This document shows, in pieces, positions 1 to 12,902 of a DNA stretch of 64,000 nt. The DNA comes from Hydrogenophilales bacterium (GTDB taxonomy: Bacteria; Pseudomonadota; Gammaproteobacteria; Burkholderiales; Thiobacillaceae): NCBI GenBank assembly GCA_037439465.1, contig JBBIVX010000014.1, positions 7,293 to 71,292 on the forward strand, read 5' to 3'. Position 1 is the stretch's first letter, and each line of letters begins with the position of its first letter. The translations under genes and the position numbers were made by a program. Below the pieces are notes generated by a model, which was not told the origin of the DNA, made no database searches, and worked only from the letters and a program-made list of their open reading frames with translations.

Positions 1-2208
1 ACGTATGCCTTGCAGATCGAGGTGCTCGACCGCAATGGCCGGGTACTGTTGGCGCAGCCGTGGCATATGCGCACCAACCTCTCCCTGTTCAAGGACGCCC
101 AGGGCCGCGAATTTACCCCCGCCTTTTATCTCAACAACGACCGCGTCCCCTTGCTCAGCGCCATCATCCGTCTCAATTTCGCCGGCCTGCCGCCGCCCGA
201 GCGGCTGCGCCTGCGCCTGTTGCGCAAGGACGCGGACATACGCGATGTGGTGGCGCGCGTTTACCTCCCCGAAAAAATCCAGGCGCACAAGATCGGCTAT
301 CTGTGGCAGCGGCTGAGCGAGAAAACGCGGACGGCGCTGGCGGCCGGCAACGTCTATCCGAGCGAGCTGCTGACCGAGGAAGAAAAGCGCGCCCTCATGT
401 TCAACTCCTGGCAGCCCATAGGCCCCAAGGATCGTCACGGCGAGTTGCGCCGCTGGGATTACTACGTGCTGCGCGACAACGAGGGCGAAATGATCGACAG
501 CGCCATCCCCAGCGCCGGGCTGCGTTTTTCCGCCGGGCACTCGGGCATGGTGCCGCTGCCCGAGGAAGGCGGCCGCCTGCGTCTGCATTTCGAGCCCGGC
601 CTCGCCCCCGTCCAGGGCGACATCCGCCTCATGTGGTATGGCAACACGGCCTTCCAGCGCCGGCAGTTCCGGCTGCATTTCGACGGCCGCCCCCTGGACC
701 ATCGTCTCGACCTCGGCGGCGGCCTGCTGGAAATCCTCGCCGATGCCGACCTCAGCGCGCGCCTCTATCTCATCGACAACAAGGGAAAGGAGACCGAGAT
801 CACCCCGGTGCCGCAATACCTGCGCACCTACAGGACCGACCTGGCGCGCCCCATCGAGTACGGCATCCTGCACGTCGCCGCCACCCCCACGCCGATCAAG
901 GTCGATCTGCGCACCCTCACCCCGCCCGAGGACAGCTGGGCGGAGCGCTCCCCGCTACTCGACTATGCCTTGCTCGATCAGGCCGGGAAGGTGCTCAAAC
1001 AAGGCCGCATCGCCATCAGCAAAGCCGACAGCCGCTACGACAGCGTAGTCAACGACTACACCGGCGCGCGTTTGAGCGACCCCTCTACCTACTACTTCCT
1101 GCTGCCGGCCAACGTCGCCAGGCTGCGGCTCCAGGGCGCGTCGGAAGACGCGCCGGTTCTGGTCGCGGTGTCCAGCCGGCCACTCGACCTGCCGCACCGC
1201 TACCGCGCCCCCGAGGACCAGTTCGACTTCGACGCCCTGGGCAAGCGCGTCAGCGCCTGGTTCCCGCTCAAGCCGGAGAACCACGTGCAGTGGCTGGCCG
1301 ACAACGCCAGCGTGCTGCTGACGGTGCAACCGCGCCCGCCCGAGGACAGACCCGAGCTGTTGAGCGGCCGCTATGCCTGGGAGGATTTCCATCCGCTCGG
1401 CGCCTGGAAGGGCCGCCTGTTGCTCACGCCGCAGGAGCCCGGCATGCCATTTCGCAGCGAGGCGCTGCCCGCCAGCTATCAGGAGATCATCCCCAGGCGC
1501 GACACCGCCATCTCCCTGCCATCCTACGAAGGCCTGCGCAGCCTGGCGCCCCGCCTGCTATGGGTGCGGCCGCAGGAGACGCCGGCGTCATTCAGCCTGT
1601 TCGTGGACGGCCGCCCGCACCAACAGGGCCGTCTCGCCGGCCGCCATGGCGAAATACAGCTGCTGCCGCTGAGCGTCGGTCCGCACCGGCTGCGGCTGGT
1701 CAGCGAGGCGGGCGGCAAGTTCTTTCTCAACCACCTCGAACCGCGCTCGCCAGTCTATGTGCAGCGGCTCGCCAACCAACTGGAAAACGCGCTCGACTTC
1801 GTCGTCGCGCGCACCACTTCATGTGCCGAGACCCTCTCGGTGAGTCTCTTCCAGCCCAGCGAGCGGCGTGCCCGCAGCCGCCTCCGGGTCGAGGTGCGCG
1901 GCCCGGCGCCGGCCAGTCTCGCCCCCCTGCCCGCCTGGGTGTTCAGGCTCAGGGAATTCGATGTGCGTCCCGACAGCCGCGACGCCGTCACCGTATTTTC
2001 GGCGCAGGAGGCCCGCACCGATGCCGGACAATCTTTCTACCTGCCTTTCCCTGCGGGCGCGCCCAGGGGGCTGTACCGCATTACCATACGACTGCAAAGC
2101 GGGCCAGGCGGCCACGTCCTGCTGTCGCGCCTGACTCCAGGCGTCAAGCCGACAGAGCGGCTATTGCATGAAAACGATGTCGTCACTTATGAAAACGCAC
2201 AAGACTGA
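1..2208 (+). CDS. Large hypothetical protein, 5' end outside the window; first visible gene of a four-gene operon
   Basis: Frame 1 is open from nt 1 (ORF track 10..2208, 732 aa). No catalytic motif recognised. Sequence looks beta-rich. It carries a module LLPLSVGPHRLRLV that recurs in the downstream giant protein. Its 3' end overlaps the next ORF. Confidence 0.6.
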   Translation, partial: TYALQIEVLDRNGRVLLAQPWHMRTNLSLFKDAQGREFTPAFYLNNDRVPLLSAIIRLNFAGLPPPERLRLRLLRKDADIRDVVARVYLPEKIQAHKIGYLWQRLSEKTRTALAAGNVYPSELLTEEEKRALMFNSWQPIGPKDRHGELRRWDYYVLRDNEGEMIDSAIPSAGLRFSAGHSGMVPLPEEGGRLRLHFEPGLAPVQGDIRLMWYGNTAFQRRQFRLHFDGRPLDHRLDLGGGLLEILADADLSARLYLIDNKGKETEITPVPQYLRTYRTDLARPIEYGILHVAATPTPIKVDLRTLTPPEDSWAERSPLLDYALLDQAGKVLKQGRIAISKADSRYDSVVNDYTGARLSDPSTYYFLLPANVARLRLQGASEDAPVLVAVSSRPLDLPHRYRAPEDQFDFDALGKRVSAWFPLKPENHVQWLADNASVLLTVQPRPPEDRPELLSGRYAWEDFHPLGAWKGRLLLTPQEPGMPFRSEALPASYQEIIPRRDTAISLPSYEGLRSLAPRLLWVRPQETPASFSLFVDGRPHQQGRLAGRHGEIQLLPLSVGPHRLRLVSEAGGKFFLNHLEPRSPVYVQRLANQLENALDFVVARTTSCAETLSVSLFQPSERRARSRLRVEVRGPAPASLAPLPAWVFRLREFDVRPDSRDAVTVFSAQEARTDAGQSFYLPFPAGAPRGLYRITIRLQSGPGGHVLLSRLTPGVKPTERLLHENDVVTYENAQD

Positions 2209-11700: not shown

Positions 11701-12902
11701 GCTTCGCCAGCCACGACATGGAGGCGGAGCCCGGCGTCATGCTGAGCGTGGTGGTCAACAACCGCGCCGACCGCATCGCCCGCTCGCGCGTATTCGCCGG
11801 GATAGTGGTGGAGGACATCAGCGCCGACCTGATCGTGCTCATCGGCTCCAACCTGCATGGGCTGCAAGGCTATATACGCGAGTCGTGGCAGATTTATGCC
11901 GCCGGGCTGTCGCTGTGGCCGGCCGATGGCGCCACACCGGCGCAGACGCTGGCAGACACCGCCCGGCGCAGGCGCGTGGTGCACACCGCCGCCCACGCCA
12001 GGGCAAGGCTGGCCGCCATGCTTGCCGGTTGCGGCATCGCTGGCGCCGAAACCATACTGGCGGCGTGGGACACGCCGGCGGATTTGGCTGCGGCGATACG
12101 CGCCAGCGGCAGCGCCGCGGCCGACGGCATCCTCGCCTGCGCCGAGCGCGACCGCTCGAGCCTGACCGAGTATGCCGAGTTCGCGCAACGCATCGCCTCC
12201 CTGGACGCCGCCCCGGAGCCTGACGCCGGGCTCGATTCGGCCTTCCGGGAACTCGTCTGGCGCTGGCTGGAACGGCGCCTGCTGGTCGTCGAGGACTACT
12301 ACGCCAGCGGCAACCAGATCATAGACATCCTTTGCCGCGCCACGCCACCGGGCTTCAAGAACCGCATCCAGGGCATCCAGAACATCAAGGGCACCGGCCT
12401 CGATTTCGTCTACCGCTGGCAGGCCTGGGATACCTGCTACCGCGCCTGTGCGCGGCTGCAGAGTCCGGAACCCGAGGTGGCCCGCCAGGGCCTGGCGGCG
12501 CTCGCCGCGTTTCAGGAATTCGGGCCACTCTGCGAGGAGCATGTTAAAACCGTCATTGCCACGGTCAAGGCCTCGCCGCAGGCGCAGAACGAGCACTTTC
12601 AAAGCGAACTCAACATCATCGCCGCCCGCCTCGACCGCGCCATGCAGGAAGTCAGGGAGCAGATGGCGGTGACCCGCGCCAGCGGCTGGCAGGAAAGACT
12701 GTTCGCCGGCATCGAGGCCTTTCTCGATGCCGGCGACGCCATCAAGCGGCGCAAGATTTCCAACCGGATTTATCAGGACCTGATCAACGAACGGATCAGC
12801 CATGCCCGCGCCGCGCTTGAACTGCAAGCCCTCAACAAGCGGCAAAAGGGCGGCTGGCTGCTACAGGCCCTGCAACAATGGAAGCCGCGCCGGAACGGCT
12901 AG
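8751..12902 (+). CDS. HEAT-repeat / PgsB(CapB)-like Mur-ligase-family amide ligase fusion protein (1383 aa)
   Basis: ATG 8751 overlaps the upstream stop (ATGA, 8751-8754). The ORF-track start at 8328 is an out-of-frame overlap with the giant gene. N-terminal HEAT-like repeats (HDPSPYVRQALAEALAQ; ADATPQVRAAAALQ). Hydrophobic helix LPELILFTLAALMAFLIRHLYL lies just before the P-loop GGWGTRGKSGTERI. Further PgsB-like blocks: SKTTGCEAMFL, WECMALTPAF, TNTFPDHEDLQGPAG, FVNGMSANE, VVNNRADRIARS, GIQNIKGTG. Confidence 0.8.
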   Translation: MTGEDIRALLEYALAPHWRKVEAPLITELVDAFLAWYPAQETLRGERNRHVPLLRFLIGRVNEEQQAIDRLQREHVEFSKRYARAVLAEEKQRHILDFAAALGADRRQLKEDRQAFGRWFGHDAMADRYHNRVARAERRLAFSLQRLGVIAGQALLDAGAGAETLWRQLGLEALLTPLLTYDGDARIRIETFACLANALQKMPAAMQSRSINDFTLQYVFRAATDPRQHVWIQCAALHLLASLALDAFAAAAGKRLEQPRAGDDLFVRRRVILLVGQKLAQRPALAGLLDTARHDPSPYVRQALAEALAQADDDSLVRLMPALLRADATPQVRAAAALQIPVLLARPALADHLRAWLMTLLTEEGDPFVLKVAMAVIAQVPSEPVWHADPARRRQWTQHFLPVIEAVHLHSPHLPVRRFAALTRERLWCQSDERRLQWLQDLQEWLARCPPGRSIRLPRRLLQGWDEAEVGRLLAVASQQDFGLDLERTWMGWRLWRGHVFRRRLWRMLHEFRHPSPDKRQGFLHTVGRVFHGHRRAPSAILAELAETKVPGEALHFASEGGWRPYLPLADEFLSALDQTFPVKPVLVHSAEGITEITPPRTFLGRLLAAFKLSWRFERYAHLRNWHEDGQQAPSAYLRAMTKLGFTIRFQPYGDAPDTQVRRFFPAGFALSGVEFDWWPGLRNYFFSVFENTLPELILFTLAALMAFLIRHLYLNRQIHQARARLPLVIGGWGTRGKSGTERIKAALFNALGYSVVSKTTGCEAMFLHGPAYGQLREMFLFRPYDKATIWEQHNVVRLASRLGGEVFLWECMALTPAFVRLLQRRWMHDDFSTITNTFPDHEDLQGPAGVNIPEVMTNFIPERGHLFTSEEQMRPILSAAAKLAGTPLQGVGWVESGLLAPDVLARFPYQEHPDNIALVLALADELGIPQDFALKEMADRVVPDLGVLKVYPTAPIAMRRLEFVNGMSANERFGCLGNWQRTGFASHDMEAEPGVMLSVVVNNRADRIARSRVFAGIVVEDISADLIVLIGSNLHGLQGYIRESWQIYAAGLSLWPADGATPAQTLADTARRRRVVHTAAHARARLAAMLAGCGIAGAETILAAWDTPADLAAAIRASGSAAADGILACAERDRSSLTEYAEFAQRIASLDAAPEPDAGLDSAFRELVWRWLERRLLVVEDYYASGNQIIDILCRATPPGFKNRIQGIQNIKGTGLDFVYRWQAWDTCYRACARLQSPEPEVARQGLAALAAFQEFGPLCEEHVKTVIATVKASPQAQNEHFQSELNIIAARLDRAMQEVREQMAVTRASGWQERLFAGIEAFLDAGDAIKRRKISNRIYQDLINERISHARAALELQALNKRQKGGWLLQALQQWKPRRNG
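10920..12430 (+). other. PgsB/CapB-like ATP-dependent ligase core within the fusion protein
   Basis: Block-by-block colinearity with remembered Bacillus PgsB: INGIRGKS / KTTGTDARMIY / SECMAVNP / EDHMDVMGP / FVNGFAAND / MNCRADRVDR / GVGNIHGAAEP. An extra insertion of roughly 150 aa sits before the last block. Confidence 0.7.

Follow-up and report, generated by a model that had tools for sequence, protein, structure and literature searches.

Synthesis of gamma-polyglutamate is understood almost wholly from the pgsBCA and capBCA operons of Bacillus; there the catalytic site is made up of PgsB and PgsC, and removal and export of the chain fall to PgsA (PMC4928254). Fusobacterium nucleatum is the sole Gram-negative producer named in two reviews (PMC4497714, PMC4928254), and neither addresses the passage of such a polymer across a periplasm and an outer membrane. 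The present analysis concerns 64,000 nucleotides (nt) of DNA from a Hydrogenophilales bacterium (contig JBBIVX010000014.1, positions 7,293 to 71,292; this whole stretch is called the window), of which positions 1-12902 are occupied by four plus-strand open reading frames (ORFs), genes A, B, C and D. They form the 3' part of an operon of six genes, G0-G1-A-B-C-D, which is a concrete candidate for a system that takes a polymer of this kind across both barriers.

The reading towards which we lean is that an inner-membrane synthase of the PgsB/PgsC type makes a gamma-polyglutamate-like polymer, that A and C carry this polymer through the envelope, and that B trims it. The known part of the system is the PgsB/PgsC synthase core, and the new part is the envelope apparatus. 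A first-pass annotation, made from the letters of the window, had suggested a different machine encoded by a four-gene unit. The machine is not wholly different, since the synthase core is PgsB plus PgsC, as in known systems, and the unit has six genes in contig L083 and in distant relatives. Contig L083 aligns with window positions 1-13058 at 95.8% DNA identity and supplies the genes that precede the window. The features of the operon within the window are as follows (amino acids, aa).

1 to 2208, plus strand: gene A, the 3' 735 codons of a gene of about 833 codons; the full copy is at L083:6928-9429.
2189 to 3061, plus strand: gene B, about 290 aa, predicted to be exported and to adopt a zinc-carboxypeptidase fold; signal peptide to about nt 2257.
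3061 to 8754, plus strand: gene C, 1898 aa, predicted to be exported; signal peptide and alternating beta-rich and helical blocks.
4519 to 4803, plus strand: OmpA-like domain of C (aa 488-582, PF00691).
5305 to 6207, plus strand: predicted helical, TPR-like region of C (about aa 750-1050), in which helical periodicity is dominant.
7840 to 8652, plus strand: candidate outer-membrane beta-barrel of C (about aa 1595-1865).
8751 to 12902, plus strand: gene D, 1383 aa, with HEAT repeats, a hydrophobic helix, a PgsB-like ligase and a C-terminal helical domain.
9552 to 9761, plus strand: HEAT repeats of D (aa 268-337, PF13646).
10830 to 10922, plus strand: hydrophobic helix of D (aa 694-724), immediately ahead of the P-loop.
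10854 to 11864, plus strand: PgsB-type Mur-ligase domain of D (aa 702-1038, TIGR04012).
11865 to 12899, plus strand: remainder of D (aa 1039-1383), a C-terminal domain that is mostly helical and in which the motif GIQNIKGTGLDF is invariant.

The G+C content of the operon stretch is 66-73%, and long ORFs occur in several frames, spurious ones included. Homologues of all four products, at 20-55% identity and in the same order, are found across phyla. Genes A to D are regarded as real because these homologues are kept at the protein level in many genomes, and the possibility that they are spurious high-GC frames was rejected on this ground. Gene A is open at the left window edge and ends with the stop codon TGA at 2206-2208; by comparison with L083, the window begins 294 nt inside a gene of 833 codons. 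Candidate ATG starts of B lie at 2168, 2177, 2189 and 2213. Homologues favour 2189, with which the protein begins MKTHKTELMAAL... and its signal peptide ends VQA|DW. Depending on the start chosen for B, the A/B junction is an overlap of 20-41 nt or a gap of 4 nt. The stop of B and the start of C share TGATG, with the ATG of C at 3061 and an in-frame TTG at 3058, from which residues of C are numbered here, and the stop of C and the start of D share ATGA at 8751-8754. The frame of D is open from 8328, and the start at 8751 was set by homologues of 1380-1385 aa. The coupling of the four ORFs reported by the first-pass annotation is confirmed at these places, in the case of A and B as either an overlap or a 4-nt gap.

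The catalytic part of the proposed synthase lies in D. Residues 702-1038 match the PgsB model TIGR04012 (200.6 bits, E 3.3e-59, profile positions 3-325 of 380), which is the sole NCBIfam match of D at E <= 0.1. Models of MurC-F, FolC, MurT and cyanophycin synthetase gave no match to D in NCBIfam or Pfam at this threshold. The ligase is thus better described as PgsB than as any of these, and the PgsB/CapB-type core recognised in the first-pass annotation stands. The P-loop GGWGTRGKS and the motifs ECM and N..PDHE are invariant in an alignment of 53 homologues of D, as is the C-terminal motif GIQNIKGTGLDF. The N-terminal region of about 690 aa contains HEAT repeats (PF13646 HEAT_2, 32.2 bits against a cutoff of 27.7). 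All 64 full-length homologues, with identities of 38-90%, share the build of HEAT region, ligase and C-terminal domain. PgsB itself is a stand-alone protein of about 390 aa (380 model positions), whereas the 1383 aa of D include 690 aa before the ligase and a C-terminal domain of 345 aa. Judged by these family matches, D is a PgsB-type amide ligase embedded in a large protein.

An AlphaFold2 model of D residues 601-1383 (mean predicted local distance difference test score (pLDDT) of 85.7) shows a long helix, aa 694-724 (model residues 94-124), that leads into the first strand, the P-loop and a Mur-ligase fold. This helix coincides with the sole strong hydrophobic helix of the protein (Kyte-Doolittle peak at aa 697-715). 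Its structural neighbours in Foldseek are the cyanophycin synthetase CphA1 (top match, E 8.6e-8), FPGS, MurC/E/F and MurT; a PgsB structure is not among the best 50 matches listed for the model, and a PDB sequence search with D gave no useful match. CphA1, the Mur ligases and FPGS thus share the fold of D, and CphA1 and FPGS also build amino-acid polymers. They differ from D in being soluble and cytoplasmic, in having neither a PgsC partner nor envelope components, and in that none of their sequence models matches D. A conserved, aromatic-rich segment, RFFP...YFFSVF, precedes the hydrophobic helix (window 10740-10922, aa 664-724) and is modelled with low confidence.

The partner of PgsB is encoded just upstream of A. 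In L083, two further genes on the same strand, G0 and then G1, precede A; G1 (1082 aa, L083:3683-6931) shares 4 nt with the start of A. Its sequence includes two PgsC/CapC modules, at aa 25-159 and 226-346 (PF14102, 147 bits, in two stretches), with about 9-12 hydrophobic segments across this region. The first-pass annotation had found no PgsC-like protein, an absence that proves to be an effect of the window edge. After the PgsC modules of G1 come two soluble domains. Their homology to B is shown by hhalign (E 5e-15 and 9.5e-14), as is their homology to one another (E 5e-17). Both are devoid of the invariant His/Asp/His/Glu of B and are likely to serve as binding modules, not as enzymes. G0, of 900 aa, is a sensor histidine kinase with four membrane helices, whose orthologue in the Sulfuricellaceae contig L081 carries a CHASE2 domain. 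The layout G0-G1-A-B-C-D recurs in L081 and L086. A separate gene of 250-270 aa upstream of A was considered and rejected, as it is the C-terminus of G1. Between G0 and G1, L081 has a 138-aa receiver-only response regulator (L081:3772-4188) that is absent from L083.

A PgsC-like gene directly upstream of A in relatives is what would be expected of an ordinary cap or pgs locus that appears unusual only through the cut of the window. The architecture of the operon speaks against this explanation. PgsC is duplicated and fused within a protein of 1082 aa, PgsB is embedded in one of 1383 aa, and nothing in pgsBCAE or capBCADE, as summarised in PMC4928254, corresponds to A, B or C. The PgsA/CapA family PGA_cap was not detected in A-D of the window (Pfam, E <= 0.1; the rest of the genomes was not searched), in G0, G1 and A of L083 (Pfam, E <= 0.05) or in the Legionella orthologues (E <= 0.01). 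PgsE and a CapD/GGT-type transpeptidase gave no match in the six products. The first-pass annotation had allowed for canonical pgsC and pgsA upstream; PgsC is indeed there, within a 1082-aa protein rather than as a small one, but no PgsA/CapA is found in the six products. With PgsA missing and the fused architectures different, an ordinary cap locus is highly improbable and was rejected.

The operon resembles the Bacillus PgsBCA(E) and CapBCA(D,E) systems in having an ATP-dependent amide ligase of the PgsB type whose P-loop directly follows a hydrophobic helix, PgsC/CapC-type membrane modules, a single operon and an associated polymer hydrolase. It differs from them in the placement of the ligase between a HEAT-containing N-terminus and a C-terminal domain, and in the tandem arrangement of PgsC and its fusion to two inactive hydrolase-like domains. 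It further differs in the addition of the large exported proteins A, B and C and a sensor kinase, in the absence of PgsA, PgsE and CapD, in its two-membraned hosts, and in scores below the equivalog cutoffs.

Protein C is the largest of the envelope partners. It begins with a signal peptide (...LLLLGWSCLAQG|ELD), and its orthologues, of 1540-1990 aa, occupy the same operon position. A periodicity map of their alignment shows beta-rich blocks alternating with helical blocks. The OmpA-like domain described in the first-pass annotation is clearly present (PF00691 at aa 488-582, 57.7 bits against a cutoff of 27.2, E 1.5e-15, with many NCBIfam OmpA-type matches) and shows the motif N..LS..RA..V as YNQRLSQRRATVV. 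In the alignment of 27 orthologues of C, this domain is an insert restricted to the window lineage and L028. Other orthologues carry a SPOR module at about aa 630-765 (L012, 893-6556; L041, 1493-7105; L060, 4213-9990) or a LysM module at about aa 1194-1236 (L036, 4354-9996). The positions of OmpA, SPOR and LysM at different sites of C indicate that peptidoglycan-binding modules were gained independently, which argues for a location of C at the cell-wall layer. In Legionella londiniensis (L045:4199-9714), C is split into two ORFs (1113 and 728 aa) in which a peptidoglycan-binding domain is not recognisable, and the operon is directly followed by recA-recX.

At aa 1595-1865 or so, C has about 14 conserved strands of alternating hydrophobicity, with 4.8% Trp, in the longest run of high period-2 signal in the protein. 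This C-terminal stretch is a probable outer-membrane barrel. The barrel-like C-terminus proposed in the first-pass annotation is therefore upheld as a sequence pattern but not by any family or structure match, the region having no match in Pfam or among PDB sequences. A homologue search with the C-terminal 709 aa of C returned 3 proteins only, and the profile of C gave in the PDB only a weak match, to the designed TPR protein 7obi (E 0.29), which belongs with the predicted helical, TPR-like region at about aa 750-1050.

Full-length orthologues of A, the L083 copy included, have an N-terminal hydrophobic membrane anchor, and in relatives A is an inner-membrane-anchored, beta-rich periplasmic protein. 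No informative Pfam or PDB sequence match was obtained for A, the only hit being a weak BiPBP_C. A comparison of A with C by BLASTP gave nothing significant; hhalign aligned A 271-646 with C 67-651 (probability 91%, E 9.6e-7), which bears out the beta modules that the first-pass annotation saw in both. On this profile comparison, the modules of A are homologous to the N-terminal part of C.

The recurrence of peptidoglycan-binding modules in C also fits a different outcome, in which a PgsB/PgsC polymer is kept in the periplasm, at or near the peptidoglycan, as a polyanionic layer or osmoprotectant, with C as a periplasmic organiser. The barrel of C is a prediction, the protein has no aromatic residue at its C-terminal end, and the polymer of Bacillus anthracis is anchored to peptidoglycan (PMC4928254). 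Retention of this kind is at odds with the conserved amphipathic-strand pattern of about 270 residues at the C-terminus of C, which is typical of outer-membrane barrels, and the operon encodes no CapD/GGT-type transpeptidase. We judge a periplasmic polymer to be unlikely.

Gene B encodes the hydrolase of the proposed system. Its product has a classical signal peptide (MKTHKTELMAALVMAALAPTVQA|DW), and its AlphaFold2 model (pLDDT 91.4) shows a zinc-carboxypeptidase fold. The top PDB neighbours in Foldseek (E 3e-5 to 2e-3) are an aspartoacylase-family protein, a putative metallopeptidase, YndL with polyglutamate (PGA) bound, CCP5, PghP and 2odf (Atu2144), the last of which we take to be N-formylglutamate-amidohydrolase-like. 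For YndL with PGA (5onj) the values are E 2.8e-4 and a template-modelling (TM) score of 0.57 on the target, and for PghP (3a9l) E 5.3e-4. Amides of Glu or Asp are the substrates of the neighbours, YndL and PghP among them. Against predicted viral structures, the model retrieved zinc carboxypeptidases and formylglutamate amidohydrolases, and nothing PghP-specific. Twelve residues are invariant in 35 homologues of B (P120, H121, D125, R151, D163, Q190, H192, G193, N252, H268, E270 and R276), and the His-x3-Asp...His...Glu set among them could bind a metal and catalyse hydrolysis. On the strength of the model, B is an exported member of the zinc-carboxypeptidase fold group that probably depends on a metal and probably cleaves an amide adjacent to an acidic residue.

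PghP and YndL are zinc-dependent gamma-polyglutamate hydrolases related to carboxypeptidase A (PMC4497714). B shares their fold in its model and differs from them in several respects: it exceeds them by about 90 residues, carries a Sec signal peptide and, at the N-terminus, a helical subdomain, and shows no significant match to PF05908, and fold neighbours that are not PGA hydrolases score equally well or better. Neither Pfam nor NCBIfam contains a family that matches the window B, a lenient Pfam scan of the 35 homologues revealed no recurrent family, and the profile of B had no match among PDB sequences. The term 'PghP-like', used of B in the first-pass annotation, is accordingly valid for the fold, through the Foldseek matches to YndL and PghP, but not for family membership, there being no match at the sequence level. 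The profile of B reaches 2920 representative clusters (50% identity) at E <= 1e-3, and 1133 at E <= 1e-30; B defines a hydrolase family without a Pfam model. In P0255, a protein of 1157 aa from the representative-protein library, the B domain is located at residues 860-1126; this protein is probably a natural A-B fusion.

Enzymes that cleave the gamma-D-Glu bonds in murein peptides occur within the fold class of B, and this opens a reading of the operon without a polymer. In such peptidoglycan or envelope remodelling, D would extend a cell-wall or lipid-linked precursor by one amino acid or a few, B would be a murein-peptide amidase or carboxypeptidase, and A and C would be peptidoglycan-associated scaffolds. 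The Mur-ligase fold that D shares with MurC-F and MurT, the OmpA, SPOR or LysM modules in orthologues of C, and the scores of D and G1 below the PgsB and PgsC equivalog cutoffs can all be counted in its favour. It has to contend with the sequence match of D to PgsB only (the models of Mur ligases, FolC and MurT gave nothing at E <= 0.1) and with the PgsC modules, in tandem in G1, which are known from polyglutamate synthases only. A protein of about 1900 aa with a probable barrel is also hard to account for by modification of a precursor alone. Remodelling is, in our estimate, distinctly unlikely, and slightly more so than a polymer retained in the periplasm.

Several observations weigh against a PgsB/PgsC-type synthase with an export apparatus. 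The score of D, 200.6 bits, is below the equivalog trusted cutoff of TIGR04012 (222.7), and that of G1 for the PgsC model TIGR04011, 66.9 bits, falls short of the 96.45 set as its cutoff; on these scores, glutamate may not be the substrate. A PgsA homologue was not found among the six operon products. The fold neighbours of B include general carboxypeptidases and amidohydrolases, and its membership of Gamma_PGA_hydro (PF05908) was rejected at the sequence level, as only one of the 35 homologues matched, with E 0.2. The barrel of C is predicted from a sequence pattern, and C ends without the usual terminal aromatic residue. The single clear hydrophobic helix of D separates its 690-aa N-terminal domain from the ATP-using domain. 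With a single membrane span, the HEAT region and the ATP-using ligase would face opposite sides of the membrane, which conflicts with the expectation that the two large domains flanking the helix should both be cytoplasmic. Finally, the identity of the polymer is a prediction, with gamma-polyglutamate or a close relative as the most likely product.

In the synthase and export reading, the PgsB-like domain of D would ligate amino acids with ATP at the inner membrane, together with the two PgsC-like modules of G1, as their homology suggests. The two inactive B-like domains of G1 may hold the nascent chain. A, anchored in the inner membrane, and C, with its peptidoglycan-binding modules and probable outer-membrane barrel, would form a scaffold or conduit that crosses the periplasm, A taking the place of PgsA, in position at least. 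The exported zinc hydrolase B, by its fold and invariant residues, could trim or release the polymer, and the membrane sensor kinase G0 is expected to control the system. The envelope partners postulated in the first-pass annotation are in line with these products, which include exported, peptidoglycan-binding proteins typical of a double-membrane envelope and a hydrolase of the PghP/YndL fold.

Synthase-dependent exopolysaccharide systems, such as those for cellulose (Bcs), poly-N-acetylglucosamine (Pga), alginate (Alg) and Pel, provide an analogy for this arrangement. The likeness is one of layout only: an inner-membrane synthase, a large exported helical-repeat protein whose C-terminus is a barrel candidate, a hydrolase of the polymer in the periplasm, and dedicated regulation. 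Unlike in these systems, the synthase is an amide ligase and not a glycosyltransferase, and the polymer would be a polyamide. No homology to BcsC, PgaA, AlgE/K or PelB was detected by Pfam on the 27 orthologues of C or in the PDB profile search with C. If the proposal is true, the operon would represent the first synthase-dependent secretion route for a non-polysaccharide polymer.

A relative of D is encoded in at least 119 species-representative genomes, a lower bound obtained from a pattern-based scan, and synteny of the gene set extends over at least seven phyla, all of bacteria with a double membrane. Among loci with enough flank, about 45 preserve the order A-B-C-D; the synteny of the quartet, for which the first-pass annotation had proposed a test, is strong and reaches far beyond the Betaproteobacteria. 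Upstream of A, the C-terminus of G1 is present in the 40 or so A-B-C-D loci with enough upstream DNA. Three loci of Acidobacteriota have the order D-G0-G1-A; myxococcal loci have the same order and gene sizes as the window lineage, with A and C diverged. The carriers comprise Hydrogenophilales (91% identity), Burkholderiales, Nitrosomonas, Methylococcaceae, Crenothrix, Competibacteraceae, Chromatiaceae, Legionella londiniensis, Mariprofundaceae, Magnetococcales, Planctomycetota, Acidobacteriota, Desulfohalobiaceae, Victivallales and Myxococcota. All of these hosts have two membranes.

Homologues are named in databases as 'hypothetical', as 'HEAT repeat domain-containing protein' or, automatically by JGI, as 'PgsB/CapB'. 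In agreement with the first-pass annotation, which took the system for a candidate undescribed one, a description of this operon architecture was not found in the searchable literature (topics included PgsB with HEAT, PgsBCA cryo-EM, Caps_synth_CapC and proteobacterial PgsB/PgsC). We regard it as a serious possibility, rated short of probable, that the operon specifies a widespread and undescribed pathway of diderm bacteria, in which an amino-acid polymer (gamma-polyglutamate or another polyamide) is made at the inner membrane and exported by its own periplasm-spanning and outer-membrane apparatus.

Were this the case, polyglutamate-like polymers would be common in environmental Proteobacteria, Myxococcota, Acidobacteriota and Planctomycetota. 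A polyglutamate-like product would bear on biofilm matrices, metal binding and desiccation tolerance in hosts that include methanotrophs, glycogen-accumulating wastewater Competibacter, sulfur-oxidising symbionts and myxobacteria. Several of the carriers are cultured, among them Methylovulum miyakonense HT12, Ramlibacter rhizophilus, Massilia glaciei, Legionella londiniensis ATCC 49505 and Corallococcus species, which makes the idea directly testable. The tandem PgsC and HEAT-PgsB fusions may, moreover, help to explain how PgsB and PgsC cooperate.

Gene D ends with TAG at 12902, and the convergent gene nadA ends 13 nt away. Past nadA lie genes for an IPTL-CTERM protein, a class II aldolase, the Rnf complex and a pyruvate:ferredoxin-oxidoreductase-like protein. 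All are unrelated to the operon, and D is therefore its 3' border. The IPTL-CTERM protein, beside nadA, has 334 aa (window 14149-15153, minus strand) and a terminal IPTL-CTERM sorting motif (PF18203, 47 bits). Window positions 16022-25660 (minus strand) hold Rnf/Nqr-type genes, encoding RnfC/D, an FMN-binding subunit and a further Rnf-Nqr membrane subunit, followed within the same interval by a 1671-aa pyruvate:ferredoxin-oxidoreductase-like fusion protein.

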